The notes: generated by a model not told the origin, from the letters alone. Shown: positions 102 through 62,495, counted from the stretch's first letter. The stretch: DNA of 64,000 nucleotides from Haliotis rufescens (GCF_023055435.1 NW_025963890.1:57598001-57662000), one strand, 5' to 3'. A program made the numbers and translations.

Positions 102-1304
102 CTAAAAACTCTTACAAACTTTTGTTTTCATGTTCTTCCAACTTCTAAATCCTTATCCAAGACTTACCAATGTGGATGTACACTGATGTACATTGTTTTA
201 TATATATATAAATATATATCAGAAGAAAATCAGAGAACCTCTGACAATGACTTACTAATTAATGTCTTGAAATTGAAAGGAAGTTATTTGTTAAATGTAA
301 AGACATTACTCCATGTATTAAACTTAACAGTCTTCAATGCTGCAAAATTAACATTTAATTAAAGAAGAATATTTCATTTGCATACACTTGAAACAAAGCA
401 AATTAGAACAGTTCTCGATTCTTTGTAAAATGTGTCATTGGAAAAAAGAATGCATTTTCAGCCTTTCATCCATTACAGAAATTAATCTTTGATCAAATTG
501 CAAGGGAAACGCCATATAAATATCTGATAAATTTTCTTACAAAACTGCAAGTAAACAGGATCTGCCCAAAACTGGGATATACTTTCATCCAATTATTCCA
601 GTTTGGATGAGCCAATAACCTTTCTCAAGTTTCTCCTCTGATAAGTTGTAACAATATTTATGATATAAGGGGGGTAACTCCCCACACACGACTGCTATCT
701 GCTGGAGGAAAGAGCTGCGCAGCTGGTTGATTGTGAGATGAGGGGAATCCCTTCGGTGGGACTATCTAACCGGGGCTTATCATCACGAAAATCGGGGCGG
801 ATAAAAGTGCCAGGCACTATAGCTATACAATTTACAGCAAACAGCTGTTGAAAACAACCTAAAAACGTCATCTCCCTTTACGAGATATTAGATATTAAGA
901 GTCAAAGAGAGAGCTTTAGTCATCTTCTTCCACTCAAGATCTACTTGAAAACTAGTTCTCAGAATAGAATGGTCTGTTAATATATGCACATGAGATTTGG
1001 TTGATGAAAGTGTTCAATGGTGCACAGAGCCTTACCTTTTTGCATCAAAACATCAAACTTTACCAGTGCAAATACATCATAAATGGTTTGTGTTAAAGAA
1101 CTTATCTTTACCAGCATACAGATTGTTTATCATTCTTCAAATCTCTATTACTTCTTAAAAAAACACACAAATATCATTTTTGAAACATTTCATACTGAAA
1201 GACTTCATTACTCTGTGTGAACTGGGCCTGATGCCTATTTAAACAATACTTTTTTCACGGACTTGTCAGCTTAATGTGGGAGGAAAGTCCCAAGTCACAC
1301 AGGC

Positions 1305-1500
1305 CATAGTAGACTTGCACAAGTCTCTTAGGCAATAATTATTAGTCTAAATCATAAGTTCTAGATTAAGTAAATAATAAGAACAAGTTGTCCCTGTAAG
1401 AGACTGGTGTGTACTGTCCACATATCTAGACTCCTATTAGGAGGATAGAATTACGAAACATCCATGGACGTTTCTTTCAGTACAGCCTTGGAGCAAGGCC
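1305..1500. mobile_element. Dispersed repeat fragment (probable non-autonomous DNA transposon); second copy at about 58610-58802
   Basis: tagacttgcacaagtctc...aataataagaacaagtt...cagtacagccttggagcaaggc present at both loci. Confidence 0.65.
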
Positions 1501-1628
1501 AAGGCCACAGCTGTTTGTCACTTTGGTGAAACCCACGAGCACAAGGTCGGTGCTCACAAATCAAGTTCATAATCAGAGAAAATACGAGATTCGAACCCAT
1601 GATCAGTGGAACCTTGCACGGTTAGAGG

Positions 1629-1976
1629 TGAGGTGAAATTGGGTTTAACGTCGCGTCCAAGATTATTGCACTTATATAGCAACGTGCATGCACGTGTGTG
1701 TGTGTGTGGCTGCTTGTACTAGTCCGGACCCCTCTGATTTATAGTGCTAGTCCACTGAGATACCATGCCACAGTTTAACATGAATATCCCACTCAGACAC
1801 AGTATACTGACTCCCGAGCCGACCAGTCCTTGTTTTAGCCCCTTAATGCCGAGCGCCAGACAGGGTAACAACAAGTACCATCTTTTAACGTCTTTTGGTA
1901 TGACGCGGCTGGGGATCGAACCCCGGACCTTCCGCTCTCTGGGCGGACGCTCTACCACTAGACCACGGAGGCAGTC
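1629..1976 (-). mobile_element. Family D: full-length tRNA-derived SINE with Meta/MESC-type core and (ACCTC)n tail
   Basis: Head GTGGTCTAGTGGTAGAGCG (A box)...GGTTCGATCCC (B box), then gtcataccaaaagacgttaaaagatggtacttgttg...ggcgctcggcattaagg as in Meta/MESC cores; 14-bp TSD tgcacggt(t/a)agagg. Confidence 0.88.
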
Positions 1977-3069
1977 TGCACGGTAAGAGGATGCAAACAG
2001 TCAAATGCAGCACTGAGACCCCTGGGCTGCCACACCCCATTTGCAAACTAAAACTGTGAATGCTTCTTTAATCATAGATATTTGGTGACTAAGACCTGAA
2101 GGTTTCACATATCATTGTTATCAACAACCCAGGTGCAGCGTAAAGCCTGTGTACACCGTGTCATACCCACACACTATGATCACTATATGAGAAATGTACA
2201 ACTCTGATGACCTACATGTCCGTATAACCTTATTTCACTCAGTGGTGAATAAATAATATATCTCATGTGCAAGAATAAACATAACACAAACTGTTACAAA
2301 AACAATCACGATATTTCATCCAGATTAAGAGACCATTATAATATAATCTTTCATGAAATATTTTTTCCTAAATTTCAACTAAAGTATATTCAAACGTAAG
2401 CTGTCAAACACACTGTTCTCAACTACACATGCCATATAGAAGCTATTCGGTGTCCATGCTGAATCTACAAACAAAACTGATGAAGAACTATGTACTCAAA
2501 CCATGCATCTGGACATTGATCATGTCAATATCAGTGATGTGCCACTACACAATAAACTGTGAGATGAAGTGAAATAAGAAACAGTTTATCTGTTCCAAGT
2601 TAAATTTTTTATCAAGCATATAAAACTGTCCGGAACTGAGCTCCACAAAGTTTATATTACAAGCTGCTCAGATCCAATTTCAAATGAAAGATTTCATCAC
2701 TTCTACACGGAATCTGTTTAAGTATTTGTAATCAATTATTTATTGTCATATCTGAAAAAACATATGACCAACCAATTCTTTTCATTCTAAAGCCATAAAT
2801 ATTAACAGACTGGTGAAAAAGATGAAATACTACACAAAGCCAAACATTTGTTCAAACAGTCGCAACAAAAATGTATAGAAACCATGTGACACACATCAAC
2901 CAATCATTTCAATGGATGGTCGTGATAACATCTGTCTCTATCAACACAGCAATATCACAAAAAGACATTCAGAAATAAATAAAATGCACACAATTACTCT
3001 GAAACTAAACTTCACATAAGTACGAAAAGAAAAATCAACACATTTGGGCGAGTCTGAAAACATGAACTC

Positions 3070-3083
3070 CATGCGATCATGCA
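3070..3083 (-). promoter_or_regulatory. RBFOX-type intronic splicing motifs (UGCAUG and GCAUG) downstream of the microexon
   Basis: Plus-strand catgca (3078-3083) and catgc (3070-3074) read UGCAUG/GCAUG on the transcript 83-96 nt after the microexon donor. Confidence 0.45.
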
Positions 3084-3165
3084 CATGAAATGTACGACTA
3101 CAGCTAGAGACATCTACACGAGGGAATGGACGAGAGTCAACTGCAGCATTCTCCAAACATGTTAC

Positions 3166-3183
3166 CTGTGAAAACCTCCAATG
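3166..3183 (-). CDS. MACF1/DST: 18-nt microexon of the same spectraplakin gene (HWRFSQ), plectin exon 2-alpha-like
   Basis: Minus strand: ctgac...tcctcttcctgttgattacatgcag|CAT TGG AGG TTT TCA CAG|gtaaca. Phase 0/0, so it joins in frame after KHLLK; peptide resembles plectin 2-alpha HWRAE, which sits at the same position. Confidence 0.72.
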
Positions 3184-4983
3184 CTGCATGTAATCAACAG
3201 GAAGAGGATACCACTGTCAGAAACAAACATCACAGTTGTCAACAATATTAAATATGAATACATCAATACAGTCTTCTCACGACAATAAACCATCCTGAGA
3301 CATAATAACTTCATGGACAGAAAGTCCTTTCCTTTCCAATAAATGTCCACCCAAAATGAATCTACTGGCCATAATTGTTCCTTGGCATCATTTTTCGGAA
3401 GAACATTTTCTTTTCATATGGGCTTGCAAAAAGCTATGTATACTTGCCCCAAAGAATTTTTCCAATAACCTTGGGATTTCACCAAGGGTCTGTCATCTGA
3501 TACTGGCATACCAATCAATTATCCCACTAAATATATGAAAAAAGTCAAATTCATCCCATTTAAATAAGTATGTAAATACAGATGAGGATCAGATCAAGAT
3601 AAGAGGATCGTATCATTGGTTCCAAGGCAGTGTGGTCTCTCTCTATAATGGGAGACAACTCTGTAAGGCTGTTTGCTCATTCCCCAGTACACTGGCCAAC
3701 TTTACTTTACTTGCTGTAAATGGCTGTTGTATCATGGATGTGTTGAAACACTATTACACATGATTTTTCCTAAAATTCAATTCAGCCATTCCTGTAATGA
3801 GGGTCCTATTATCAACTGATAATTCTGGTATGTTTAGCCATCCATATCAGGTCATGTCATGACCAAACAAATATCTACGAACATAAATTATAAATTTGGT
3901 CTATATATCATTGTCTTTTTATTCTATCCCTTATCACACATGTCAGTGTAATATATACATAGGTACATCGCATCTTCCCCACTGATACGAACTGAGCCTC
4001 AAGCACAATGTTGCAAACAAATGTAAATAATTAGCAATGTCTACAGCAGCTAGAGCTCCTGGGGACGATTTGAAGTTTTGTAAGATTTTTCTATTCCACT
4101 GACAGCAAAAGCTTTGGATGACAAAAATATTAACGATGAATTCGGCATCGACTAAATGATGACATGAAACTGTGTCTTGAGAGCAGGTTTTAATACTGCA
4201 AAACAGAAATAATACAAATTTTGAAACTGACATCAATTTTAGTCACCAGGTACAATTAAAAGCAACAGAACCAGGCCTAGACAGAAATCTTATATTTCCA
4301 TGAAATGACCCAAATGAATAAATATAAACCTCAAACAAGCTGTTAAAACCATTTAGATTTATTGTTATTCAACATTTTGAAATGAAATCCACAAACCAAT
4401 TTTTTAAAACTGGTTTAATCATTGTACAGACACTGACAAGTTAGAGGTGTACGTGTCTCCCAATCCCGAGGGGGTAGGTGTTGCAGTGCCTGGTGCATGG
4501 AGACTGTTATCATTGTACGTTGAACGAGGTGTACATGTCCCTCTGACTCATGCACGGCTTCATCTAGTCTGTTATCTCACATATACTCGCCCATATCTCA
4601 TACATCACACACCTTCTGTAAATATCAATGTCAGAATTGAATCTGTGTCAGGTTTATACACGTGCTGGGATGGGAATCCAAAGCAAGAGACTTTGTCTCT
4701 GAGTTTAAAATTCCAAATGCAACTTGGCAGTATGTCCCTTATTATAGACATGATCAATGGTAGTCTACATATTTATGTCAGGTATGTAATTTGTGGCTGC
4801 AACTCTTCCTATTTATTGTTTGCATGTCCCTTCCAAACTTTCAAAGTAATTATAATCATGAATATCACACCAAAATAGTTAACATTTTATTATGTACATA
4901 TTGGCACAAATTTTTCATGCACCTGTTACAAATATGGAAACTTTCAAAATTTAAACAATAGTTATCATTGTTAATAATTAAAA

Positions 4984-5242
4984 GTGAGTGAGAATGGTTT
5001 TATGCCGCTTTTAGTAATATTCCAGCAATATTCTAGCAATATCACAGTGGGGTACACTAGAAACCCGGATCTAAGCCGTGACGAGCGATACTTTATAATA
5101 ATTCAAAGCCATAAAACCTAGAAACATAATTAAGGCAAACTGGGATCAGAACCTATGATATAGGTTCCTGGCACACATAAGGGAGGCAACTCTGCACAGT
5201 TAATTCAGTGCCGCAGACAACAGAGCCACCCATGCCCCCCAC
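4984..5242 (-). mobile_element. Adjacent degenerate family A (4984-5098) and family B (5105-5242) fragments
   Basis: gtgagtgagaatggttttatgccgcttttag... followed by aacctagaaacataat...gccacccatgccccc. Confidence 0.65.
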
Positions 5243-7762
5243 TTAATTAAATGACAGGTCCCTAAAATAGTTTGTTTGTTTGTTTGATTTTGATCCGATG
5301 CTACTTAAACCTACTGTAGACACTGATAATGCAAGTAGATTCAAGGATGCTTCATGTCCATCAGGGACAGTGGGAGATGGTACCTGGGACATGCAGCTTC
5401 GTTTATATCACTCCATACATCCTGGGAGCGACACATGTCAGAAAACAGGCTTCTTGTCACCATCTCCATTAGCTAACTCTCTCTGATGACCTCAGCTTGT
5501 CTTAGTCATCAGTTCAAAGGGACAGAAAGAAGATAGTACATCTTAAGGCCTGGTCCACCACTATGGCTTAACATTAAATGTTTCAAACTGGTTTCAGATC
5601 TTAAGGGGATGGATGAGGAATCATAAATATTGGTTCTAATCTAACCATAAGACAATACGATGTTGAAAATAATCAAATCCAAAACATTTTATAGCAAATC
5701 TGAATATTTGTTCTTCACTACACTTTGAAGCACACTGAATTTTGGTTAACTAAGCAGTACAGCACTAAGTGAAAATGTCTGGTTTAACAAATTATCAGAT
5801 TTATGAATCATGAGTATGGAGTAATGATCCGTTGGCTATACAACATTCCCAACAAGACCTTGGAAGGCGGGGGTTTCCATGCAACAGACGAGACATGCCG
5901 GGTTTTTTCCAGTATCTGTGAGATTCAGTACTAATGACATGAGAATTCAAGAGACAGAAACTGAATTCACTAGCCGTAACTGTCACGTAATGATAGACAC
6001 ATCTGCCTTGGTCTCAGCTGTGTTTTTTAAACCTGCAAGCTGGCAAAATCAATGATGAAAGGTGTGGAATTAGCAGCAACCTATCCTGGTTGCTTTACCC
6101 ACTTACAAGATTACCTCCCCTTGAAAAATTTCCCAGTCTGCCCCAGGCGTACGGGCCTCTCGCACATGCACTCGGCAGCAGAGTGGTCACCTGCCATGGC
6201 TAGACCAACATACAGTCCATCAAATCTTGAAGTACACAATCAGTTTTGTTGTTTTTCGCCTTTTTAAATTCTAAAGCTAGATTTGTCTATCTTCATCATC
6301 TCGACTTGGGTCATTCTGCAGTCAAGACTACTACACCAGCCAACATATTTTTACTGTATTGTTACGGAACCTGACCTTCGATCTAGTATGTCACTTGTTA
6401 TGACAAACAAAGACTAACACATAGTCAACGAAAACAAAATAATTTTAACTTTTTTTCGTCGGAAGTTTTACAAGCAAACTCGACTTGGTTTAGTTTGATA
6501 TTGACTTGCCAAGGCTTTTAGTAAAACAAAATCCCCACAACTGGCCAGTATATGATAAAATCAATGAAACATGCAGCACATACCATACAAGATCAGGCTG
6601 CCCAACTGATTACCTGACATGGCTGGATGCAACTATATTTTCTTTGCTTTTCTAGGCAGTCATTCAATAACAACTATATTTAGTTGTAATTCTACCATAA
6701 CCTTGAAGAATGATTTATTCTGATTGGTTAAAAAGAGGTATTCTGTTTCATACTGAAACCTATTTCAAACACTCAGTGCATGGTTCCAAATTGAAATAAG
6801 AGGCATCTAGTCTACAGAGGGACTACAACAAATTTCAAAACAGTAGATGTATATCCTGAATATTCCCCTGGGAAAAGGTCAACATCTTCAAGTGAAGTGT
6901 TGCTGTATGTTATTATCAACAACAATCCAGCAATTAGAAATTCATTTTCGAAACAGAAAACCATAAATTTGTTTTAATGGAGAATAATTTGAAAAAAGGT
7001 ATGTATGTTGACTTCTAAACTGGTTTTTAAACATTTTGAGATCTCTCAGCTGGTATGATACAGATGAAGAATTTCTGAGTTTGTCCTCGTTTTGCATCCT
7101 CAGCATATTTATTCCATCAATAACGTGAACCATTTTATCACCTAACAATATCTTCAAGAGTCATCCACCTTTAACTCCAGCATAGCCATAGAAACCTCTA
7201 GGCGTGTCAATATCACCATGTGTCTGGAGCATAAAAACTGACAACTAGGGTTAAGTCATTTTAATCACCTTTGTATCTATACAATTCAGTACAAAACCAG
7301 CTCTTATATCCCGGGAGTGTCAGTTTCAACAAGACTCTCGGTGTATACTATGTATATACCACAGCAATAAGATAGACTTCAATGGGCCACACGTGGTTTG
7401 ATTATCCAGCTGTCATGCTTGATTACGTTGCATATCATGGATTGAAATGTACATTAATCGATCAGTCAACATCATGTCTATTACAAAGACACCCCATTAT
7501 AACTTTATTGCAAGGTCTTCAATGAATACATAACAGGATCCATGTATTACCCCAGCTGATTAATTCTCGTTTTGAAAACACTTAAGATGTAATAATCCTG
7601 GGTCAACCTCATAAATGTGTTGGTAAAATAGAATATATTAACACAGTGTTAAACCAGATGTAGCATTCCCAGAGACAGTGTCGAGATAAACACATCAGCA
7701 GGTTACAGAATCATTGGTATGGAGTGATGTCGATTTGTATATATATATATACTACTCAAATG

Positions 7763-8043
7763 AGTGAGTGAGTGAGTTTGGTTTAACGCCGCTTTTAACG
7801 CTATTCCAGTTATATCCCGGCGTGTCAGCTTAATGTGGGAGGAAAGCCCGAAGTGATGCAGGTATCAGACGTTTACCACTTCGGTGAAACCCACGAGTAC
7901 GGGTATGGTGCTGACAAACCTAGAAACATAATCGGGGCGAACCGTGATTCGAACCCACAATCATAGGTTTCTGGCGTGCCCAAGGGACGCAACTCTGCAC
8001 AGCGAATCGCGATGCCTAAAACAACTGGGCCACCCGTGCCCCC
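7763..8043 (-). mobile_element. Family B: full-length tRNA-derived SINE with (ACTC)n tail
   Basis: Head GGGGCACGGGTGGCCCAGTTG...GGGTTCGAATC; body with gctttcctcccacattaagctgac; TSD ctactcaaatga on both sides; inserted into a tiny tatactactcaaa...tttgagtagtata inverted-repeat element. Confidence 0.9.
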
Positions 8044-8994
8044 TACTCAAATGAAGTTAAAGAACATCTTTTGAGTAGTATATATAATCTCATCACTAAT
8101 TGCTCGGACTGTAGGTTTCTCAGTATTGATGACAGAACTGAATGCAAATTTGTAACATCAAGTGTTAAAAGAAATTACCACACTGGAATAAGATAGCTCA
8201 TGGACACTAGGGCAGAGGACAAGAAGAATCAGCCATTTATAATCAATAAAAAATAATCTGCTGATAATGTGGAAGTATTTGTAAAATTTGTCAATATCCG
8301 TTTTGTTCCAGATCATTTTTCACTGTTCAAAGATTAGTCAGAAAATACAGGTATTGCTTCCAAAAGTCTATCTGAATGTCATGACAACCAACACGTAGTC
8401 AGAACACTTTTAGGCAAGACAATGAAATATGAACTAAAAGACAAACAACAAAAATAAATAAAGAATCTTCATCAATCAACTACATCTGATAACCAAAAGT
8501 TTAAAATATTGAACTTCTAAAACCAAAACAGAAAATGAATGATTTTTTCCCACAATATAATGAAAAACATGACAGGAGAGACAAACATGAAAAACAAAGG
8601 CTATGGTTGGTATGAGGCTGTAGGAGTCTGAGTACTATTACCACATATCTGGCACTGCATGGGAATGCCTTATCTAATCAACGTGGGATAACATTACCAG
8701 TAGCCTGTAGTTCTCCACTCCAGGAACCTCCCTGAGTTTGTTTCCCACAAGTTTATTAGCCTTATTTCATGGAGCGCCATATGCTTCACAAGAGACCAAA
8801 TAGGCTCAGTTCATAACCTGGCAATGGGCTGATGAGTCTGCGACCAGGGACGATGGAATGATGGCCTGGATGATATTACAGGCTTACATTTTTGTCAATT
8901 TCTTTCTGATTGAAAATTAAAATGTTATAAACGAAGTCGGATTGTTAATCATTGCTCCTAATATGATACTTTCAAAACTTCATTATTTTCAGAT

Positions 8995-9240
8995 CCATGA
9001 AGATCCAGGTTTGAAAAGGTCTTCAGCAACCCAAGCTTGCCATAAAAGGTGAGTATGCTTGTCGATAGAGGCAACTAACAGGATCGGGTGGTCAGGCTTG
9101 CTAACTTGGTTGATCCACGTCATCAAATCCCAATTGCATAGATCGATGTTGATGACATCAATCACTGGATTGTCTGGACCAGACTTAATTATTTACAGAC
9201 CACTATTATTGCTGAGTGTGGCATTAAACAACAAACAAAA
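8995..9240 (+). mobile_element. Family C short retroposon, near full length
   Basis: ccatgaagatccaggt...ggtcttcagcaaccc...atcactggattgtctggaccagac...ggcattaaacaacaaac. Confidence 0.85.
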
Positions 9241-9462
9241 TTATTTTCATCATCTTCACTGTTTGAACATCAACATGATATGAGCATCATCATCAACACA
9301 ATCTTACTAACATTATAATCATAATCATAATCATCATAATCATCATTGCCATCTCAATAACATCATCAAACCCATTAACTCATTCATAGCATCAGCAGCA
9401 ACATCACCACCATTTTAATCAACATCATCTCGTTAACATTATCACCATCATCAACATCAAGC

Positions 9463-9671
9463 AGACACAATTTATGGATAAATTATTTACAGTAAAGGTG
9501 ACGTTCCATTTATAGATCCTTCAAGCAAGGCTTGAGGTATAAGGTATAAGGTTTTAGGTATAAGGATCTATACCGAAACGTCACCTTTACAGTAAATACT
9601 AAAGTTGTTATCCTTAAATTGTGTCTACTTTGCCATCCGTCAACTTTTAAGTAGTGCTTTTTAAACAATTC
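9463..9671. mobile_element. Inverted pair of Penelope-like element end fragments
   Basis: 9463-9525 is the reverse complement of about 9562-9627 (aaggatctataccgaaacgtcacctttacagtaaata...atccttaaattgtgtct); a related copy at about 48044-48150 shows it is a dispersed repeat. Class inferred from the ...CCGAAACGTC... motif and inverted layout. Confidence 0.5.
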
Positions 9672-10544
9672 ATCAACACCATTTCCATAACATCATCATC
9701 ATTTTTGCCATCTCTTTAAAATTATCACCATAATAACTGTGTTAGTGAGATTTTATTGTTTCAACAAGTTACAATTTCAGCAGTCCACTTAAAACTGTAA
9801 CAATAACAGTGACATCTGACCTGAACAAATTCATCAATTATTAAACAGGTAGTAATTAACAGTATATTATTCCACGTGTTTCAAGGGACTTCAAAGACAC
9901 AGCTTTCCCCCATCCAGAGCTCCACACAGTGACACAGGATAGCCAAGTCAAACAAATCACCTGTCACTCAGGAGTAACCCCACCCATAAGACTGCCGGTG
10001 AGGGCAAACATCCCACCCACACAGGCACCGAGCACTCTGTGTATGTAACTGATACGCCAACACCTACAAATTACCTTTTTCTCCCACACTACTAATATAC
10101 AGGGAGTCAATAAATGTCTCCGTCTCGGGCATCCCTCTCCAATATCTACCACAAATGTTCACCACAGAAGATCAATGTCAGTTATGTCCCTGTAGAACGC
10201 CTCAACACAGACATCCATCTCAACCCATTTTTCCTCTAAAAGAACTGTAAGATTGTTGTGAGCAATGTCTATGTTATATCTGAAGATGCATTTTGAGAAT
10301 TAAACTAACAACCAAAGCCTTAAAGAAATGACAGGTCTTAAATTTTCCTTATGAATCAAATGTCTGCTATATGCATATCAATCAGAAGTCAATTAAAAAA
10401 GAGTTGTTGTTTTTTAAGTTAAACACAAACTGAAACTATTTAAAAGAAATCAAAGAGTTATCAGCTTGAAAGTCAATGTGTACAGATAGGAGCAAGTCTC
10501 TCCCCCAATCACACAAGGACTAAATCTACCGGTACACCTCGATG

Positions 10545-10750
10545 AGTCATATCCCAGCTTGTCAACTCTAGGAGGGAAGAAAGCCCAAGGTGGCAGACAG
10601 TTATGAAGGCCAGGAGCACAGGTATGGTGCTGACAGATGAAGACTCACTATCAGTGGAAAATTGAGATTCAAACATCAAAACAGCAGAACATCACAAGGG
10701 GGACAACTCAGCACAACAATTGCTGAGCCACAGACCACTGGGGTTCCACA
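10545..10750 (-). mobile_element. Highly degenerate family B SINE
   Basis: ggaagaaagcccaaggtg...gagcacaggtatggtgctgaca...gagattcaaac. Confidence 0.55.
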
Positions 10751-11263
10751 GGGACAGGGACTAAACTGACAAAACCTATTTCATCAAAGAAATTATTTAT
10801 TTATTAATTTACTTATCATATTTGAAGAGGTGACTTCAGATTTTGAAAGTAATCCCCACTAAGGCATGGAAGAAGCTACTAGCTAACATTGTGGTTTACG
10901 ACGAGTGTAGATATCTGACTTCAAACCCTTGCTGTGTGTGCAGGTCACAACCCCTTACATTGATTTCCACCGCAAGTAAACCCAAGTTGAATTTTTATGC
11001 TGAACAAATATCTGATAAATCCAAACTCAAACAGCCTTGTCACAACCTTTATATCATGGTACTAAGAAAGAAACCACATCAACATGGGACTTGAGTTGAA
11101 AGTTCGGTCGAAGTAAATGTAGATGTGTAGACAGTGTCGTGCAGGGAAGAATGGAGAACAGCTCTCTGATGTGTTAATTGCAGAGATCTAACAGATCTTT
11201 TTGATTTCAAAGTTTGAATACAAAGTACTTGAGGAATTTGTACTACTGCAGTGCCTGGTGATT

Positions 11264-47666: not shown

Positions 47667-47791
47667 ACTGAACAGTTTTATGATGTCGGTCTGTATATGA
47701 TCAATCTGGACTAACTAAACCAGACACTGACAGTATGAGCAACGATACAAGCCATGGCGGCACAATGAGACACAAGCAGTCAAATCTGGAC

Positions 47792-51857: not shown

Positions 51858-52364
51858 TATACTACCAAAATAAAGTTAAAGAACACACGATTCTTTCACA
51901 TAACTACAGTAAACTACAGTTATAACAAACTCAAAGGGACCACTTATTTTAGTTTGGAGTAGCCGTAGTTCGTTATAAGCATAAAACAGCAAATGTCCGG
52001 AACTAAAAGTTTGTTATATCGGTCAGTTCGTTATAAGCGTGTTCGTTATAAACATAGTTTACTGTATAGTTAATCTGTCGTGTAATACACTACTAAAATA
52101 AAGTTAAAGAACACCTGATTTTTCATATAACTATAGTTGATCAGTTAATAACACCTGATTCTTTCATATAACTATAGTTGATCAGTTAATAAGACCTGAT
52201 TCTTTCATATAACAATAGTTGATCAGTTAATAACACCTGATTCTTTCATATAACTATAGTGATCAGTTGGTAACACCTGAATTTTTCATTCTTTCATATG
52301 CTATGACAGATAAACCATATAATATGAAAAACTCAGGTGTTCCTTAACTTCTTTAGAGCAGTAT
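51858..52364. mobile_element. Family H Tc1-like MITE with duplicated left end, nested family G MITE and internal 41-bp tandem repeat (about 52111-52280)
   Basis: tatactaccaaaataaagttaaagaacac ... gtgttccttaacttctttagagcagtata; related aagttaaagaacac ends at about 8055, 32745 and 40878. Confidence 0.6.
51907..52064. mobile_element. Family G Tigger/pogo-like MITE
   Basis: ta|cagtaaacta...tagtttactg|ta. Confidence 0.8.
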
Positions 52365-52718
52365 ATGTTGTTATAATTCCATATATTAAGTCTGTAAGTG
52401 AGAAAAGGGGGTTTGATGCCCATGTCAGATGTTCTAAAAACTTAAGTTTGATAACCTGGATGAGATAAACCAGATATTGCGAGGTGCAATCTATGCTATT
52501 CAGAACGACATACAATCAGCCAGATAAAGCCTGGACCCGTTATACCAATGGTTGATATTGCGAGCACCAAACCATGTTTTTGGGTACACCATTGTAACCA
52601 CACAATCCTCATTAATGGATGCTGCTGATCAACATGGGATACTGTAGACCTATTATGCTACAGAATCACAAAGGGCTTTCCTGCTTTTTCAGAATGTTTA
52701 TTTTTCAATTGCCATTTA

Positions 52719-53053
52719 CCGTATTCGACGTAATAAGTGCTCCGCTCTAATAAGCGCCAACGGCAATTTTTGCTAATATATTGGCCAGTAAACAATCCCA
52801 ATTGGCATATCGTTTGATCAATGTACACAAGACTTATTTATTAGCTTATAATACTCACTCGTGTGTTATATGCACACTTAATTATGGGCAATTACATTCT
52901 GGAGAAATATATTTGTCGTACATAAACATTTCAGGCTGTCAGCATAAACCATGAAATTTTTCTTTCAACTCTGTTTTTTTCACCAAAATGATATTCTAAG
53001 CCCCCTATTTCTAATTTTGAGAGCGGCCTGGGCGCTTATTACGTCGAATACGG
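52719..53053. mobile_element. Family F Tc1/mariner-pogo-like MITE
   Basis: TIR ccgtattcgacgtaataag / cttattacgtcgaatacgg, TA on both flanks. Confidence 0.88.
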
Positions 53054-53362
53054 TAACACAATTGTACCTTTAAATTTTCACCGTAACACTCAAAGTTTCC
53101 TGGGTTATATGTCAAGTAATAACACTAGCATGTTGCGTAACTTTTGACTATCAGCATATCTCAAACAATATCTGGTTTATACACCACCAAATTCTACACG
53201 ATGTTCAGATAACAATATGTCACTTCCCGATTCAGTCATATTGCAAGGCTGATACTTCTGTATCTCTAAATCAAATCTACATATTGGTCAAGATGTGTCA
53301 CGAGGGGCACTTGGTCTACCCTGTCAGTGGGTTCTCACAAGTGCCACATGTGACCTAGATTT

Positions 53363-53494
53363 NNNNNNNNNNNNNNNNNNNNNNNNNNNNNNNNNNNNNN
53401 NNNNNNNNNNNNNNNNNNNNNNNNNNNNNNNNNNNNNNNNNNNNNNNNNNNNNNNNNNNNNNNNNNNNNNNNNNNNNNNNNNNNNNNNNNNNNN
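53363..53494. other. Assembly gap (132 N)
   Basis: Run of n adjoining a tandem array. Confidence 0.99.
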
Positions 53495-54010
53495 CTCTGT
53501 ACATGACATACTTCACTGTGTACACGACATACTTCACTGTGTACATGACATACTTCACTGTGTACATGACATACATTTCTCTGTACATGACATACTTCAC
53601 TGTGTACACGACATACTTCACTGTGTACACGACATACTTCACTGTGTACATGACATACATTTCTCTGTACATGACATACTTCACTGTGTACACGACATAC
53701 TTCACTGTGTACATGACATACTTCACTGTGTACATGACATACTTCACTGTGTACATGACGTACTTCACTGTGTACATGACGTACTTCACTGTGTACATGA
53801 CATACTTCACTGTGTACATGACGTACTTCACTGTGTACATGACGTACTTCACTGTGTACATGACGTACTTCACTGTGTACATGACATACATTTCTCTGTA
53901 CATGACATACTTCACTGTGTACATGACGTACTTCACTGTGTACATGACATACTTCACTGTGTACATGACGTACTTCACTGTGTACATGACATACTTCACT
54001 GTGAACATGA
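53495..54010. repeat. 21-bp minisatellite, ~24 visible units, running into the gap
   Basis: Unit ctgtgtacatgacatacttca. Confidence 0.95.
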
Positions 54011-54371
54011 CGAATTCCAATTTACATAACATCAGTTCCATGACATTAAACACAGACTTCCAGCATCGTCTCAAGTACATCAATGGAGAAATCGTAATGT
54101 CATCAAGGTAACAGATTTGGGCTACCTTTCCGCAAATACTTAATTTAATATTACCAATACATCATTGAATTCTCTTTCATTACAGTAGACATATGTGTCA
54201 TTATTTATCTACATTAATGTCAAACTGTGAGATGTGCGTTTGATGAACATGCCTCTTAAATCAAATATTTGTTGTTAAATGACATTGAAATGTCAAACCA
54301 ACCCTTTATTATCTACATATCTCACAACAACTATTTAAAACTACCATTAGACTTTATCATTCAGGGCAGTG

Positions 54372-54526
54372 CAGCGTTAGAAATTGGCACTAGTCCTATA
54401 GTCCTTGCCAAAGTGCCCAATGGTAAAGGTATCTTAGGACTAGTAGAAATTTGTCCTTTTTAAGGGTTTTGCTATATGTTATCATTATAAGGACTAGTGG
54501 ATGAAAACTGTTAGTTTCTAACCCTG
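54372..54526. mobile_element. Family E MITE (CAG...CTG termini), complete
   Basis: TIR cagcgttagaaa / tttctaaccctg; cagtg on both flanks. Confidence 0.78.
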
Positions 54527-55010
54527 CAGTGTATGTGTATTTTTATCTTATTTAAATGTTACTGACTTCATAGTGCAATACAAGGTGTTTTTATATACGT
54601 ATTTATGTGTGGATATTGTGTGGGTTGTGAGTGGGAGGTGGGATGGGTATAGATTAGTCCGGGTCGTTGCAAATACTTTTAAAACTGGTTCTCAATAAAT
54701 ATTAAGTCAACACAGCCATGAACTGCATACAAGCCCATACACAAGTGGCTGGTTCATCATGACCTTAAAGCAACACTCATGCTCGGAATACCTGCATAGT
54801 TCAGATTCTTATATGATGCACAACATCCAATTGAATTACATCCAAAATGATAACAGCCTATAGAACTTCTTCACCTCATCTTTATAGGAATTTTAAAACT
54901 TTACTTCTTAACAACTAAGTGGCCCATTATTATCCACATTCAGCTCCTTGTTAGATTAGGTCACATTCTTACAAAACTTCATTTTCGTTAACATTGCGCT
55001 TACATGATTT

Positions 55011-55390
55011 CCGTATTCAACGTAATAAGCGCCCCGCTCTAATAAGTGCATACAGCGATATTTGCTTATACCGTATTCGACGTTATAAGCACCCTTGGCA
55101 TTATTTGCTAATATATTGGACAGTGAACAATCCTAATTAGCACCCTTTCCAATTGAACAATGTACACAAGACTTATTTATTTGAGTATAATACGCACTCC
55201 TGTGTAATATGCACACTAAATTATGGGCAATTACATTCTGGAAAAATATATCTGTCGTACATAAACATTTCAGGCTGTCAGCATAAACCACGAAATTTAT
55301 CTTTCAACTCTGTTTTTTTTTCACCATAATAATATTCTAATAAGAGCCCCCTATTTCTAATTTTGAGAGCACTTATTACATCGAATACGG
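55011..55390. mobile_element. Family F MITE with duplicated left terminus (55011 and 55071)
   Basis: Two ccgtattc(a/g)acgt(a/t)ataagc starts, one cttattacatcgaatacgg|ta end. Confidence 0.82.
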
Positions 55391-55744
55391 TATTCTTCAT
55401 AATCTTAACAAAGTGCAATATGCTCTCACAACAATTGCCAACAGAGACACAAGGTCACCATGACCTTTCTGGCCCCAACAATCACTAGTGACGATCTACA
55501 CCATGTATACAAGAATTACTGGAAACATAAACCTAGATTTCTCAGATATACTCTACAATTAGTAATTACTACAAAGATCATGCGCATGACAAGACTACAA
55601 TCAAGTGTGTTGAGAATTCTGGACGTGGCGTATGATTAATTGTGAAATTGACAACCCTTATCAGATGTAGATAACAATGTGTTCAGGGAAGCATTGTGGA
55701 CATGTGTGTGTCATCCCTCATTGAGTTCCGTGATCCAATATGGG

Positions 55745-56160
55745 GTGAGGTTAGGTCAGAAATGGGTTTACGTCGCGTTCCAAGCTTACTGCACTGACAG
55801 TGACATGCCTGAACGTATGTTTGTGTGGCTGCTTGTAATAGTCTGGAATCTATGTCGGATTCAGGGTAGAAACTAACATTATCAGTCCAGTAGTCCTTAT
55901 AATGATAACATATAGCAGAACCCTTCAAAAATGGCAAATTTCTACAAGTCGAAACTTTAACTATTGAGCAGTTTGGCAAGGACTATGGGACTATAATGCC
56001 AATTTTTAACGTTTTATAGTGCTAGCCCACTGAGATACCATACAGTTGTTTAGCATGGATACCCCCCACTGAGACATTAGACCGACCAGTCCTTGTTTTG
56101 CCCTTAAATGCTGAGAGCCAAGCAAGGTAACAACAAGTACCATCTTTTAACGTCTTTTGG
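55745..56160 (-). mobile_element. Family D SINE interrupted by a family E MITE (55862-56011)
   Basis: gggtttacgtcgcgttccaag... [cagggtagaaactaac...ccaatttttaacg] ...ttatagtgctagcccactgagatacca...aagtaccatcttttaacgtcttttgg. Confidence 0.78.
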
Positions 56161-56238
56161 GAAAATGATGACATGATTTCATCGCCATTAGAAACTTGTA
56201 AAAGTGCAATAGTCTCAAGAACAACTTTGTAGTGGTGA

Positions 56239-56504
56239 AGTGAGTAGTGAGTGAGTTTGGTTCAATGCTCTTGTAAACAGTTTTTCGGTAATATTACTTC
56301 GTGTTGGCTTGATGTCTGAGGAAAGCCAAAAGTGATGCAGGTCTAAGACATTTACCACAGAGACGTGGTGTTACCAAACCTTGAAACGTAATCAAGGTGA
56401 ATCTTGGATTTGAACCCCCGATCATTGGATTCTGGATGCCTGAGGGGAATTAACACAGCACAAAATGTTGCAGCAGCTTGGTCTACTGGGCCACCTGCGC
56501 CCCC
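56239..56504 (-). mobile_element. Degenerate family B SINE
   Basis: gtgagtgagtttggtt...gaggaaagcc...gtgatgcaggtc...ctgggccacctgcgcccc. Confidence 0.72.
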
Positions 56505-56655
56505 TACTAGTTAAGATAAACCAGAGGAATTATGAAAACTTGGAAGGTTTTCCTATACCATGCATCTATAATCATAATCACCGTTGATTTTGAATATTTA
56601 TCTGTAAATGAAATTTAATAGTATCTCTTTATAACTTTAAAAAAACATATTCCTT

Positions 56656-57075
56656 GACCCATGAAGAACCGGTGAGTGAGTGAGTGAGTGAGTATGGTTT
56701 TACGCCGCTTTTAGCAATATTCCAGCAACATCACGGCGGGGGACACCAGAAATGGGCTTCACACATTGTACCCATGTCGGGAATCGAACCCGGGTCTTCG
56801 GCGTGACGAGCGAACGAAGAACCGGTGAAGAATAGGTCTTCAGCAACCCATTCTTGGCATAAAAGGCAACCTTGTTTGTCGTAAGAGGCGACTAACGGGA
56901 TCGGGTGGTCAGGCTCGCTAACTTGGTTGATGCATGTCATCGTATCCCAATTGCATGGATCGATGCTCATGATGTCAATCACTGGATTGTATGGTCCAGA
57001 CTCAATTATTTACAGGCCGCTGTCATATAGCCGGAATATTGCTGTGTGCGGCATTAAACAAGAAACAAGCAAACA
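56656..57075 (+). mobile_element. Family C element, full length, with family A inserted in its head
   Basis: gacccatgaagaaccggtga [insert] gaagaaccggtgaagaataggtcttcagc...ggcattaaacaagaaac. Confidence 0.88.
56676..56815 (-). mobile_element. Family A SINE (5'-truncated) nested in family C
   Basis: Near-consensus A body flanked by 13-bp TSD gaagaaccggtga. Confidence 0.88.
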
Positions 57076-57560
57076 TTACAAAGCACCAGAGAGACACTGC
57101 AGTATGAATGATTAGATTGACTAAATATTACAATGTCAGAAAGTGCTTGTGTTGCATTGTTCTGCAATCTTTCAAATGATGTAATACACTATGGCATGTA
57201 ACCCTGAGACTAGAACATTGCCTAGAGTATATTAATTTCAAATGTTTGAAATGAACAAGACATGCTGATCAATAAAGACCTCGGCATATGGCGAAAATAT
57301 GCTGCGTCATCTGCAGCACAGACTGCAATAAGCAGTAATCAGAATATAGGGCATCAAGTTTGAGTTTGCAACATAACGAAGTAATTTCAAAGGGAGGTGG
57401 GCATGCTACTGATGCATTATGAAAGTGTGTATCAAGTTGCAACCATGGTATATCAAGACCTTCTGAAAGGCCATTATTCGACCCTAAATATCCAGCAAAT
57501 GTAAAAATTTCCAAATTGGAATTAAAATTTGCCCAATTCATATTGGTATAATTATATTAA

Positions 57561-57836
57561 GTGAGTGAGTTGGGTTTAATGCCGCTTTTAACAGTATTCC
57601 AGTTATATCGCAGCGTGTCAGCTTAATGTGGGAGGAAAGCCTAAAGTTAAGCAGGTCTCGGACGTTTACCACTTCGGTGAAACCCACGAGCACGGGTATG
57701 GTGCTGACAAACCAAGAAACATAATCGGGGGTTCCTGGGATTCGAACCTACAATCATAGGTTTCTGGTGTGCCCAAGGGACTCAACCCTGCACAGCAAAT
57801 CACGGCGCCTTAGACAACTGGGCCACCCGTGCCCCC
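57561..57836 (-). mobile_element. Family B SINE, full length
   Basis: Complete head and body; TSD tggtataattata. Confidence 0.9.
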
Positions 57837-57861
57837 TGGTATAATTATAACTAATGTTAGG

Positions 57862-57969
57862 TCCAGGGTCGATTCCCACATGGGGGTTACAATATGTCAA
57901 GGTCATTTCTGGTATCCCCTGCCAGGATATTTGCTGGAATATCACTCACTCACTCACTCACTCACTCAC
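57862..57969 (+). mobile_element. Family A fragment with (ACTC)n tail
   Basis: gggtcgattcccacatggg...catttctggtatccc...(actc)n. Confidence 0.7.
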
Positions 57970-59674
57970 CGGGCAACTCAAGAATATTGAATGCATAAAT
58001 ATACAATTTTTTCACTGTCAATTCTTCCAAAAGTCCTCCATGTCTATTGTAACCCTCCCATATGTCAAACCACTCTGTAATCAAAGACTCTCATGGATTT
58101 TAACAATTTTCTCAAGGGAAGTTGCCAATTTACATCACATCCCAGCAAATTTCTGACAAAACAACTCATTTCCTCCAGCGTCACCAAACACCAGTGCTGG
58201 TCATCATGGGTGCTCACAGTGCACAGTCCTCTAGCAGGGCCAACTGTGTCAACTGGCGACCTTGCCCTTACAAAATCAACATGCAAACATACACGTTTCT
58301 TCACACTAAACAAATATTATTGATTTCCTTGTTGTGGAAAATTAACTGTCTTCATACATTGTACAACACAGTCTCTCATTCATTCTGGTTAAGTGTGGAA
58401 TGCTGGAGGGATGTGGGTGATGAGTGTATCGCGTGACGTTTTCGAATATTCATCCCTTTAGGCTTGTTTCTCAATGTTAAAATTTATAGCTTGATTGTTA
58501 TAATAAATATTGCATGTATGGGCTAGCTTTCCTACTGGGGAGAGATCTAGTGAGGAAAAATGACATGTAAAACTTCAAAACCAGGGCTTTTTATTGGGTA
58601 ACACATAACTTAGACTTGCACAAGTCTCTAAGATAATTATTATGTTAAATCATAATTTATAGATTACATAAATAATAAGAACAAGTTTTCACTAAAGAAG
58701 ACAGGCATCTTAGTACTGGCTGCTTTTCTAGACCTGCTTGTGATAAGGATAGAATGACTTTACCTCTATTGACTTAACATTCAGTACAGCCTTGGAGCAA
58801 GGCTACGTATTATTGCACCTGAAACATTTCAAGAAGCTGTAAGTGTGCCAAGAGGATATTTTATTACTTGATTTACGTTGTTGTTTGTAAAAATCTTATC
58901 CCACACACATTCCATCAAAAAACATTTCAACATGGATTTTTTCACAATCAAGGGTAAACAAAACAGAAACTTTAAAAAAGCAGCATCTACAAGGATGTAT
59001 CTGGACCCGCTCAGAGGCCGATATTAGGCTCCAAGTCTGCAGCAAATGTCAGTAAATATTTCAAAATGGAAACAAAAAAATCCAAATTCATGTTAATATA
59101 GTTATTAATGTGATGTGACTTGTATTTCACTGACAACAGGCCAATATAGAGGAAGAGGAAAAATCTTATGGTTTTTTTTATTTCACTTGATGCAAAATTA
59201 AAGTGCCTATGAAAATAAGTTTTGGAACAAGAGAACAAATTTTCCCAATTTGCATGTTCAAGGCCCTAGATAAATCATATGTATATCCATCCACATGTGT
59301 AGAAATAAATGTCAGATCAGGACCTCAAATTACTTTGTCATGATTACAGTAACATATACTTGTCTTCCGCCCTGGCATGGCATTTCCTCTGTGACATCAC
59401 AGAGGCCCTGTGACTTCCCACAATCAGCTGTCTCCGCAGTCTTAATACAGCTGGAGTCATTACAGCAAATAAGTAACAAAATGTTTAAACATACAGCCTA
59501 TTTGTGACAAATATCACAAAAATAACTGGCATAATGTTTAGAAATACAGTAAACCCAGAATAGAGAGAGCAATGAGTCTCCAGCGGGGAACATAAGTCAA
59601 CGTAAGATCCTACAGTCTGAGTTTGACCCAAATCAGCTAAATGAGAGGATAAGAAGGTCACAATGTGTGACCAA

Positions 59675-60543
59675 GGCCCTGTTCCACAAAGCGATCTTAG
59701 CGCTGTGACTTTCATAAGTCTATAGGAAAGATTGTGAGTTACGATCATATTAGTGCTAAGATGGCTTGGAGGAAGAGGCCCAGGGCCCCGTTCCACAAAG
59801 CGATCTTAGCGCTGTGACTTTCATAAGTCTATATGAAAGATTGTGAGTTACGATCATCTTAGTGCTAAGATGGCTTGGAGGAAGAGGCCCAGGGCCCCGT
59901 TCCACAAAGCGATCTTAGCGCTGTGACTTTCATAAGTCTATATGAAAGATTGTGAGTTACGATCATATTAGTGCTAAGATGGCTTGGAGGAAGAGGCCCA
60001 GGGCCCCGTTCCACAAAGCGATCTTAGCGCTGTGACTTTCATAAGTCTATATGAAAGATTGTGAGTTACGATCATCTTAGTGCTAAGATGGCTTGGAGGA
60101 AGAGGCCCAGGGCCCCGTTCCACAAAGCGATCTTAGCGCTGTGACTTTCATAAGTCTATATGAAAGATTGTGAGTTACGATCATATTAGTGCTAAGATGG
60201 CTTGGAGGAAGAGGCCCAGGGCCCCGTTCCACAAAACGATCTATGCGCTGTGACTTTCATAAGTCTATATGAAAGATTGTGAGTTACGATCATATTAGTG
60301 CTAAGATGGCTTGGAGGAAGAGGCCCAGGGCCCCATTCTACAAAGCGATCTTAGCGCAGTGACTTTCATAAGTCTATATGAAAGATTGTGAGTTACGATC
60401 ATCTTAGTGCTAAGATGGCTTGGAGGAAGAGGCCCAGGGCCCCGTTCCACAAAGCAATCTTAGCGCTGTGACTTTCATAAGTCTATAGGAAAGATTGTGA
60501 GTTACGATCATCTTAGTGCTAAGATGGCTTGGAGGAAGAGGCC
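59675..60543. repeat. Tandem array of eight 106-bp Harbinger-like MITEs (109-bp period)
   Basis: Each unit has about 30-bp imperfect TIRs (ggccccgttccacaaagcgatcttagcgct / agtgctaagatggcttggaggaagaggcc); units separated by CAG; 8x106+7x3 = 869 bp. Confidence 0.9.
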
Positions 60544-60734
60544 CAGGCTGATAATGATCTTTACGGCCCTGATTACCACTAATGCTTACAAACACAGGTT
60601 CCCCCGGCACATATTTGCCAACTTGCAGATCATCATGAATTTTGAAATATTTCTGAATGGCATAAAACTGAATTCACACAGTTTGTTTCAGATATATTTT
60701 CACCAAACAAAAATGAGAATGAGCCCTGTTTATT

Positions 60735-60890
60735 AGAGCGAGTATGATTTTACGCCGCTTTTAGAAATATTCCAGCAATATCACAGCGGGGGACACCAGA
60801 AATAGACTTCACACATTGTACCCATGGGGGGAATCAAACCTGGGTCTTTGGCATGATGAGCGAACGCTTTAACCACTGGGCTACCCCACT
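60735..60890 (-). mobile_element. Family A SINE
   Basis: gagtatgattttacgccgctttt...gcgaacgctttaaccactgggctaccc. Confidence 0.85.
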
Positions 60891-61040
60891 TTGTTAGAAG
60901 GTTCCACTATATCAGCTTTAAGAACTGCTTGATATTTATTTCAAAAGCAATGCATGCAAACACACCCGTCTATGTACAGCGAGGAAGTGGTATGTAAATA
61001 ACTCCAGCAAAAAGCAGCCATTTTATATGTATAATTAATA

Positions 61041-61379
61041 CTGTATTCGACGTAATAAGCACTCCGCTCTAATAAGCGCCCATGGCGATATTTGCTAATG
61101 CTAATATATTGGCTAGTGAACAATCACAATTAGCACCCCTTCCGATTGATAAATGAACACAAGACTTATTTATTCGTGTATAATACGTTTGTTATATGCA
61201 CCCTTAATTATGGGCAATTAAATTCTGGAAACATATATCTGTCATATATAAACATTTCAGGCTGTCAGCATAAAGCATGAAATTTACTATCTTTCAACTC
61301 TGTTGTCTTTCACCAAAATAATATCCTAATAAGAGCCCCCTAATTATAATTTTGAAAGCGCTTATTATGTCCAATACAG
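61041..61379. mobile_element. Family F MITE
   Basis: ta|ctgtattcgacgtaataagc ... gcgcttattatgtccaatacag; body matches 52719-53053. Confidence 0.82.
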
Positions 61380-61920
61380 GAGTTAAAATGTTTCCAATGT
61401 TATTGTTGGTATAGCACTTTATTCAAACAATCCAATCAATTGTAAATACCAACAAACATACTGTTTACGCTCCCTGCTCACAACCATGACCAGCTCTACT
61501 ATTACAAAGCATTTTCCTGTAGCCTCATTACCCTCAAGTCTGAGGAGTCTACTGAAGTCTAAGGACAGTTTATACACATACAGGTCTAATGCAGAGTCTA
61601 ATGTTGTTGTATATTCAGGTCACATACACCTCATGTGTGAACAAGCCACACACTCAACCGTATACACTGTATTGGATTAATCTCAGATCCATAGAAGGGT
61701 TCGTTCATCTGTTATATTTATATAAAAGGCAACATATATTGGTATATTTTCAGCAATTTAATTATTTCATTAATTTTCTCAAACATATGAATATACCTGT
61801 AAGTAAATTTATGCAATGACATGATGAATGAAATACAATTTAGACTATGTTATTTTCTTTTAATCACTAATATGAATTTTATAATTTTTATGGACATATA
61901 TACAATATATATGTGAAGAA

Positions 61921-62085
61921 ACCTGTGAAGATCCAGGCTATAATTGGTCTTCATGAACTCATTCTTGTCGTAAGAGGTGACTAACAGGATGGGGCGGTCA
62001 GGCTCACTGACTTGGTTGATGCATGTCATCATATCCCAATTGCATAGATCGATGCTTATTATGTCATTCACTAGATTGTCTGGTC
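61921..62085 (+). mobile_element. Family C element, 3'-truncated, single-hairpin variant
   Basis: acctgtgaagatccaggc...ggtcttca...cttgtcgtaagaggtgactaac...gattgtctggtc. Confidence 0.8.
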
Positions 62086-62099
62086 TAACACTGCTCTGA

Positions 62100-62495
62100 A
62101 CAATATTCCAGCTATATCACGGCGTGTCAGCTCAATGAGGGAGGAAAGCCTGAAGTGATGCAGGTCTCATACAGGGAATGGCCCTGATATACATGTACCT
62201 AGTGAGTGAGTGAGTATAGTTTGAAGCGGCTTTTAGCAATATTCCAGCAATATCACGGGAGACACCAGAAATGGGCTTCACACATTGTACCCATGTCGGG
62301 AATCGAACCCGGGTCTTTGGCGTGACAAGCGAATGCTTTAACCACTAGGCTACCTGACCGCCCCACATGTACCTAGAAACAGAATCAGGGTGAACCGGGA
62401 TTCGAATCGATGATCACAGGTATCTGGCGTGCCCAAGAGACGCAACTCTGCACAGCGAACTGCAGCGGCTTAGACTACTGGGCCACTCTTGCCCC
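62100..62495 (-). mobile_element. Family B SINE interrupted by family A
   Basis: tattccagctatatcacggcgtgtcagct... [insert] ...acctagaaac...ctgggccactcttgcccc. Confidence 0.82.
62203..62364 (-). mobile_element. Family A SINE nested in family B
   Basis: Full A copy flanked by 12-bp TSD acatgtacctag. Confidence 0.9.

Follow-up and report, generated by a model that had tools for sequence, protein, structure and literature searches.

In sampled introns of structural and channel genes of Haliotis rufescens, short interspersed elements (SINEs) of three families, here called A, B, and D, lie mostly in the sense orientation of the gene that contains them. The bias was first noticed in the window (the whole stretch of DNA analyzed here, 64,000 nucleotides), and it is confirmed as real and as reaching beyond the window to other genes. 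It is limited to transcription units and is independent of the RNA polymerase III (Pol III) head of the elements and of target-sequence preference. The best explanation, to which we give a probability of roughly 50%, is that antisense copies of these CTCAC-tailed SINEs are purged by selection on splice signals. Our literature search found no earlier report of a sense bias for such SINEs; the words "orientation" and "intron" are absent from the main text of PMC4758252, which describes Haliotis SINEs.

Judging from its encoded protein, the host of the window is a spectraplakin (plectin/MACF1-like) gene on the minus strand, so that minus is the gene-sense strand. The first exon of its CH1 actin-binding domain lies at 50062..50123 on the minus strand (plectin/MACF1 CH1 match, E 5e-7) and carries its own donor, AAG/GTGAGT; the following exon, just past base 1 of the window, gives a plectin/MACF1 match as well. 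The bulk of a host intron of about 50 kb occupies 1..50061 (minus), is CpG-poor, and shows T>A and G>C skew on the sense strand, and 50124..64000 (minus) is probably the upstream intron of the same gene. This low-CpG, skewed domain stops about 2-4 kb past the window. An exon-like open reading frame at 17085-17372 was considered as an alternative exon and rejected, having no match in Pfam and resembling a dispersed repeat.

Families A, B, and D can be assigned to the tRNA-derived SINEs by their features: a tRNA-like head, target-site duplications, short length, dispersal, and a tandem-repeat tail. The consensus bodies measure 152 bp (A), 266 bp (B), and 343 bp (D), compared with 251 bp for family C, the fourth common SINE of the window. 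Both boxes (A and B) of a Pol III promoter were found in the A, B, and D consensuses, and the head of the A copy at 62216..62364 was identified as tRNA-Asp by ARAGORN and as a tRNA by Rfam; family C has neither an A box nor a canonical B box at its head. Target-site duplications matching over at least 6 bp, mostly 10-14 bp long, flank full-length copies of A (57 of 74), B (18 of 34), and D (15 of 17), and the target sites are rich in pyrimidine at the tail junction. A first pass returned 6154 candidate copies of family D. Families A, B, and C have a 3' stem-loop in common and similar target-duplication lengths; a further hallmark of tRNA-derived SINEs is a 3' end held in common with a partner LINE. 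By the features described in PMC4758252, family D resembles the Haliotis MESC SINE, in which (CA)n likewise lies inside the element and (CACCT)n at its end, and family C resembles Hdi_LP (LP-SINE; 255 bp, also without A and B boxes); A and B were assigned to no named family. MESC SINEs are further marked by a 95-bp MESC core domain, and LP-SINEs by homology of their first 70 bp to Nimb-17_LMi.

The bodies of A, B, and D differ, and their sole common part is a tail that can form GTGAG on the opposite strand. The first-pass annotation had given these tails as (ACTC)n or (ACCTC)n, and we found (ACTC)n in A and B and (CACCT)n in D. It had further proposed that they read on the opposite strand as repeated GTGAGT or repeated AG/GTGAG, and that in sense they supply UCAC (YCAY, Nova-type) clusters; as sequence, both readings are correct. 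The (AAAC)n tail of family C is donor-free.

Using the family consensuses, we identified 28 A, B, and D copies in the window, although in one or two cases a pair of entries may be parts of a single element (e.g., 4994 and 5114). Twenty-five lie on the minus, gene-sense strand (binomial p=2.7e-5). For family A, the recount gave 12 of 14 sense, close to the 11 of 13 first reported. The sense A copies comprise full-length elements at 30423..30574, 47517..47666 (98% identical to the consensus, with a 12-unit tail at 47470-47517), and 62216..62364; 5'-truncated ones at 23730..23828 and 32592..32690 (10-unit tail, 32547-32587); a 3' end with a short tail at 4994..5031, a fragment at 39886..39935, and a head fragment at 50893..50949; an old copy at 38859..38987; and copies at 45531..45660, 56694..56816 (99% to consensus), and 60744..60889. 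Nine of the ten B copies are sense, as first counted: full-length elements at 7780..8043 (with an (ACTC)n tail at 7762-7777) and 57571..57836, a fragment broken up by another repeat at 1255..1605, a head fragment at 5114..5239, an old fragment of 68% identity at 10545..10635, two pieces of one copy at 15352..15641, a 3' end at 28823..28860 with an 18-unit tail (28733-28804), an old copy at 56276..56504, and one at 62082..62496 that is broken by the inner A copy at 62216. All four D copies are sense, again in agreement with the first count: a full-length, MESC-like element at 1636..1976 with internal (CA)n and a short (CACCT)n tail (1625-1635), a 3' part at 11356..11483 with an 18-unit (CACCT)n tail (11264-11354), a copy at 47845..48044 with 10 units (47792-47842), and one broken by a small DNA-type repeat at 55760..56160.

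The three antisense copies, on the plus strand, had been placed at 33060, 40025, and 57862, and the recount agrees to within one base. They are a full-length B at 33060..33314, whose intact 10-unit tail (33315-33355) puts 8 GTRAG motifs into the pre-mRNA; an A copy at 40025..40417, broken by a family C insertion, whose tail yields 4 GTRAG motifs; and an A fragment at 57863..57942 with an intact 7-unit tail (57942-57969). Family C, which the first-pass annotation left unmentioned and which ends in (AAAC)n and resembles the LP-SINE, served as a control, with 5 of 12 window copies sense. Its sense (minus) copies are at 1..104, 18818..18892 (a fragment), 20627..20658 (a weak 3' fragment), 44688..44899, and 47673..47768 (a fragment), and its antisense (plus) copies at 8992..9229, 19261..19464, 24294..24514, 40124..40325 (within the antisense A copy), 42073..42299, 56816..57059, and 61921..62085.

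We then tallied orientation in 76 intronic stretches from 22 genes, sampled among structural and channel genes. In this sample, 177 of 211 A, B, and D copies were sense rather than about half; without the host gene the count was 154 of 183 (84%), from 21 other genes on both contig strands. The fraction was alike for genes on the plus (91/113) and minus (86/98) strands, and for each family taken singly (82-87%). Twenty of the 22 genes lean sense, one leans antisense, and one is tied, and bootstrapping over genes placed the sense fraction at 0.78-0.91. Left out of these tallies were a stretch downstream of its gene (L210; 2/3 sense), 2.7 kb of L079 that overlap L078, and 30 short myosin loci. 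Between genes the same bias was absent, with 83 of 211 copies on the strand scored as sense, a slight lean the opposite way, and past the likely gene start it fades (11/19 sense). Neither of the two outcomes that the first-pass annotation had named as refuting its proposal was observed. Per Mb, the sampled introns hold 46 antisense and 234 sense copies, and the two intergenic strands 118 and 179. DNA-transposon-like repeats showed no bias (31/65 sense); other retroelement families, with at most 7 intronic copies each, were too few to serve as controls.

According to the selection hypothesis, new insertions would start near 50:50, antisense tails would place tandem GTGAG donor-like sites in the pre-mRNA, where they would probably bind U1 and cause mis-splicing, and purifying selection would remove the antisense copies soon after insertion. 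The 3' end common to A, B, and C may add a weaker cost, since its antisense strand has a branch-like TTTAAC with YAG downstream; this would explain a sense excess of about 2:1 in family C. On the sense strand the tails lack a canonical poly(A) signal, so the mammalian-type cost that pushes SINEs into antisense is likely absent here.

That donors in the antisense tails drive the purging, as the first-pass annotation had proposed, is in part borne out. Family C is less biased in introns (106/157 sense, 68%) than A, B, and D (p=2.8e-4), and gene by gene the A, B, and D sense fraction exceeds that of C in 13 genes, falls below it in 4, and equals it in 4. Tails with at least 4 donors are sense in 45 of 48 cases vs 97 of 121 for the others (p=0.035, with the cut picked post hoc). 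A role for the tail therefore fits, given the family C contrast and the long-tail class. Sites of (ACTC)n that lack a SINE body are distributed 15:6 in favor of sense in introns and 8:9 between genes. Natural tail swaps are too rare to serve as a contrast, there being only 3 C copies with ACTC tails (all sense) and no A or B copy with an AAAC tail.

Other observations do not follow the proposal. Tail length as a continuous variable had no significant relation to orientation (p=0.24), and copies without a detectable tail (35/43 sense) or without the 3' end (28/32) are as biased as the rest. Family C is 68% sense without donors, and within it neither tail type nor A content differed with orientation. 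The antisense survivors have not been disarmed: among 25-27 such copies no loss of signal was found, their tails keeping intact donors and acceptor AGs, and upstream acceptors are not lacking (21% of 24 survivors vs 29% of random sites). In fully masked intron DNA with minisatellites removed, lone GTRAGT occurs 88 times in 200 kb, a ratio of 0.77 that indicates only mild depletion, and AG/GTRAG has a ratio of 1.56. With lone GTRAGT so common, and with antisense copies adding a median of two donor sites, a fivefold depletion seems a large effect for so small a cause. The tail is thus not the whole story, and the splice-donor mechanism itself is only indirectly supported. Two side proposals were rejected: micro-inversions as the origin of the antisense survivors, as the sequence around them shows no reversal of skew, and sense tails as branch-point arrays, as no clear AG avoidance was seen downstream (p=0.89 by score, 0.047 by count). 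Four putative RNA contig sets were compared with window positions 1500-21400, and three, together with a large run of unknown kind, with one young A copy. No mis-spliced transcript was seen among the matches, most of which came from SINE copies elsewhere; unaligned ends close to the predicted acceptor resembled diverged copies and occurred in the large run as well.

A further departure came from glutamate and acetylcholine receptor genes, whose introns hold 78 sense copies out of 135 (about 58%; 40/67 in verified introns). Under the selection hypothesis these expanded families would be less biased as selection on them is weaker. They also bear on the strongest rival, in which germline transcription sets the direction of insertion or repair; new copies would then arrive mostly sense in germline-active genes, and selection would be unneeded. 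This is possible, although we regard it as rather doubtful; its specific form, in which the SINE machinery reads the direction of germline transcription, inserts CTCAC-tailed RNAs mostly sense, and sets the 5:1 ratio at insertion genome-wide, is a little more doubtful still. Such coupling would account for a strong bias in low-CpG, skewed gene bodies (179/212 sense) and a weak one in high-CpG receptor genes (96/156 for all high-CpG copies), but high-CpG genes other than receptors are still 19/22 sense, and per-stretch skew fails to predict orientation within any class, with a negative correlation in the receptor genes. It would also account for a bias that is equal at all ages, including copies at least 97% identical (14/16 sense), and for its independence of exon density: giant introns (114/137) and exon-denser stretches (88/102) gave no sign of a stronger bias near exons, in a coarse test with a partial exon map. 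Of the copies at least 98.5% identical, 5 of 6 are sense, a sample too small to speak to rare insertions. Total density is alike in all classes, about 280 per Mb in introns and 297 between genes, as if only the orientation of copies had been redistributed. Family C, probably mobilized by the same machinery, leans sense too, but much more weakly than A and B despite the common 3' end. Moreover, target motifs give no bias, and the strand preferences described so far for retroelements go the opposite way (PMC10030826).

It is less probable that antisense copies in pre-mRNA pair with SINE RNAs, with SINE small RNAs, or with nearby sense copies, the duplex harming the transcript. Such an effect would work anywhere in an intron, without a promoter or an intact tail, and most strongly in genes with broad expression. 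The observations agree with each of these, and SINE sequence is very abundant in putative RNA runs (their RNA status being a guess). However, close inverted pairs of the same family occur at a ratio of 0.80, vs 0.74 for non-homologous pairs and 0.61 for D with other families, and are not rarer between genes. In addition, copies that pair inside a single transcript do so symmetrically, which cannot single out the sense side in 20 of 22 genes. Head-on collision with, or antisense transcription from, a copy's own Pol III promoter would also favor co-orientation, and the presence of promoter boxes in A, B, and D but not in C parallels the ranking of the families. This is very improbable, as is a target-sequence bias, because promoterless copies are equally biased (headless 42/50 vs full-length 112/131; among young copies, 19/21 vs 69/82) and target preference predicts 49% sense. 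Finally, chance, a quirk of the host gene, or an uneven supply of target sites on the two strands can be set aside. The window was indeed chosen post hoc, and pyrimidines are frequent at the tail junction of target sites, but the bias recurs in 21 further genes, on either strand, and the target-site matrix predicts a sense fraction of 0.48-0.49.

If selection against antisense splice signals is the cause, a terminal repeat of 4-5 bases may decide which SINE direction genes tolerate, and these introns would offer a natural experiment in how giant introns handle false 5' splice sites. The tail hypothesis also predicts which species should be biased, as MESC ends differ by taxon (PMC4758252): Haliotis copies end in (CACCT)n and Bathymodiolus copies in (CACT)n, while those of other taxa mostly have (CA)n or (CAAA)n. 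If orientation is instead set by germline transcription, a retroelement system would be sensing the direction of transcription. SINE orientation could also mark the strand and extent of genes in such genomes.

The closest known case is the depletion of antisense Alu in human introns (PMC3088655), where a sense bias likewise goes with a cryptic splice signal on the antisense strand. The Alu signal, however, is an acceptor, and a sense bias of Alu has been reported only at distances of 20-200 bp from exons. The SINEs studied here keep a ratio of about 5:1 far inside introns that span tens of kb, and the signal proposed for them consists of donors repeated in tandem along the terminal repeat. The dog Can-SINE (PMC11699766) resembles the present case in that an RNA-processing signal in the tail is proposed to set orientation, with an intergenic control in both, but is its mirror image, a sense-strand AATAAA leading to an antisense bias; the wrong-way copies in dog have partly lost the motif, and the antisense copies here have not. 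Human L1 and Alu lean opposite to the bias described here (PMC10030826). For mouse intronic transposable elements, as here, the bias was read as purifying selection and is the same for young and old copies (PMC3446317). In mouse, 41.6-45.1% of SINEs and about 32.5% of ERVs are sense; set beside these published values, the 84% found here has the opposite sign, as first noted, and lies farther from 50% than even the mouse ERVs, thus reversing the mammalian orientation rule and exceeding its size.

The window corresponds to C112:57598001-57662000 of the 1.33 Gb genome. The only coding exon found in it (50062-50123, minus strand) matches plectin and MACF1 and has AAG|GTGAGT as its donor; three further CH1 exons lie just past window base 1, and CH2 and spectrin repeats farther along, all on the minus strand, so the window is, judging by these exon matches, probably almost wholly intronic sequence belonging to a spectraplakin gene. 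The window is spanned by a CpG-poor, base-skewed domain that stops sharply 2-4 kb past base 64000 (positions 2000-4000 of the sampled stretch L039), a boundary that likely marks the main start, or promoter, of this gene. The host intron also contains five adjoining minisatellite arrays (33819-36657; periods 40, 23, 11-39, 44, and 38 bp). Elsewhere in the window, a 109-bp unit with inverted repeats inside it occurs as eight almost identical tandem copies (59671-60547), and single-unit relatives are scattered over other loci. On the gene-sense strand, a LINE-like element is represented by its 3' end, which carries a (TAA)n tail (51180-51490); related copies in other places appear to resemble a restriction-type endonuclease region.

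Self-comparison and consensus building defined four SINE families: A and B, 152 and 266 bp long respectively and both ending in (ACTC)n; D (343 bp), ending in (CACCT)n and having features described for Haliotis MESC SINEs; and C (251 bp), ending in (AAAC)n. The features of D make an abalone the likely source of the sequence. Families A, B, and D possess A and B boxes, and a 3' stem-loop is common to A, B, and C. The excess of gene-sense copies reported for the window by the first-pass annotation was borne out (A, 12/14; B, 9/10; D, 4/4), with 5 of 12 family C copies being sense, and tails are intact in all three antisense A/B/D copies. Compound insertions comprise C nested in A (40025-40417), C head-to-head with A (56694-57059), and A nested in B (62082-62496).

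Beyond the window, genes were located by Pfam exon hits, names such as dystrophin and nesprin being read from domain layout, and 10-kb stretches were taken. The largest set, 76 stretches, came from between the exons of structural, motor, and channel genes (24 in all); 60 came from the downstream side of Hox, Fox, and NK genes, 9 from receptor arrays without introns, 39 from genes for glutamate and acetylcholine receptors, and 4 from upstream of the host gene, and one further stretch was dropped. The sample (~1.9 Mb) was hand-picked, and the counts refer to it rather than to the genome. Introns of the structural, motor, and channel genes departed clearly from an even split, with 177/211 A, B, and D copies sense (plus-strand genes, 91/113; minus-strand genes, 86/98; host gene excluded, 154/183), and 20 of 22 genes leaned the same way. 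This bias was not repeated between genes (L111-L170 and L211-L219), where copies leaned against the upstream gene (71/178 and 12/33 sense, or 83/211; p=0.002; young copies, 3/16 sense); upstream of the host gene, 11 of 19 were sense. Neither of the two outcomes that the first-pass annotation named as refuting its reading was thus observed. Base skew was present in introns and absent from the intergenic set, which supports this classing. DNA-type repeats gave 31/65. The sense bias is confirmed and, within the sample, generalises beyond the window.

Several properties had no effect: the SINE's own promoter (headless copies, 42/50 sense; full-length, 112/131), target sequence (a matrix built on 70 duplicated sites predicts 0.49 sense), age (14/16 at ≥97% identity; 63/72 among old copies), and exon density (114/137 vs 88/102). 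Tail length had a weak effect when copies with at least 4 donors were compared post hoc with the others (45/48 vs 97/121, p=0.035), and was not significant in a rank test (p=0.24).

Antisense density is 46 per Mb in introns vs 118-179 between genes, sense density in introns being modestly high (234 per Mb), and the GTGAG-forming tail is the sole feature common to A, B, and D. Family C, which lacks this tail despite sharing the A/B 3' end, is less biased (106/157 sense, p=2.8e-4; A, B, and D together exceed C in 13 genes and fall below it in 4). The low antisense density and the weaker bias of C point to loss of antisense copies through something tied to the tail. Donor-like arrays in antisense tails would be the plainest reason, and the host's own exon uses GTGAGT as a donor. 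The proposal that selection purges antisense splice donors stands in part: surviving antisense copies keep their donor signals and, on a crude score, show no avoidance of upstream acceptors, and family C is sense-biased despite its donor-free tail. Single donor hexamers are common in introns and only mildly depleted, and no mis-splicing was seen in putative RNA contigs, whose alignments were swamped by other SINE copies. On balance, we judge it about as likely as not (roughly 0.5) that selection acts against antisense splice signals.

A coupling of orientation to germline transcription is the next candidate, though a less likely one. The bias is weaker in receptor genes (78/135; verified introns 40/67, comprising glutamate 21/30 and acetylcholine 19/37) and stands at 23/31 in voltage-gated channel genes. 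Genic stretches with CpG observed/expected ≤0.5 gave 179/212 sense and those >0.7 gave 96/156, low CpG here presumably reflecting germline gene-body methylation; high-CpG non-receptor genes nonetheless gave 19/22. RNA pairing involving antisense copies is considerably less probable: non-homologous pairs are as concordant in orientation as homologous ones. All remaining explanations carry little weight. Antisense survivors cluster within ~2 kb whatever the family, a pattern that none of these readings accounts for.

Small DNA-type families E, F, and G have 44 of 45 copies in structural or channel-gene introns (in the window at 52717-53055, 55011-55392, 61039-61377, 43220-43368, 54372-54520, 55865-56011, 1310-1499, and 58611-58805) and none in 690 kb of intergenic or 390 kb of receptor-gene DNA; this near-confinement suggests that they target germline-active gene bodies. 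A satellite at least 10 kb long (L198, G000:C113:3516101-3526100), made up of CAT/CAC units of 12-15 bp and having 13 G in one of its strands, immediately precedes an exon hit for an acetylcholine receptor on the upstream side; the same contig carries a tandem cluster of ~15 compact myosin-head genes (13.92-14.29 Mb), and C124, C246, C301, and C594 hold large acetylcholine-receptor-like gene arrays with the ligand-binding domain in a single exon.

Our literature search, whose coverage excluded most subscription papers and bioRxiv supplements and so cannot prove absence from print, found no sense bias of such size, and the main text of a mollusc SINE paper (PMC4758252) mentions neither orientation nor introns. 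L1 and Alu overall lean antisense (PMC10030826), mouse SINEs are 41.6-45.1% sense (PMC3446317), and the antisense bias of dog Can-SINEs has been linked to poly(A) signals in their tails (PMC11699766). Human SINEs show a sense bias only 20-200 bp from exons, where it has been put down to antisense Alu acceptors (PMC3088655).
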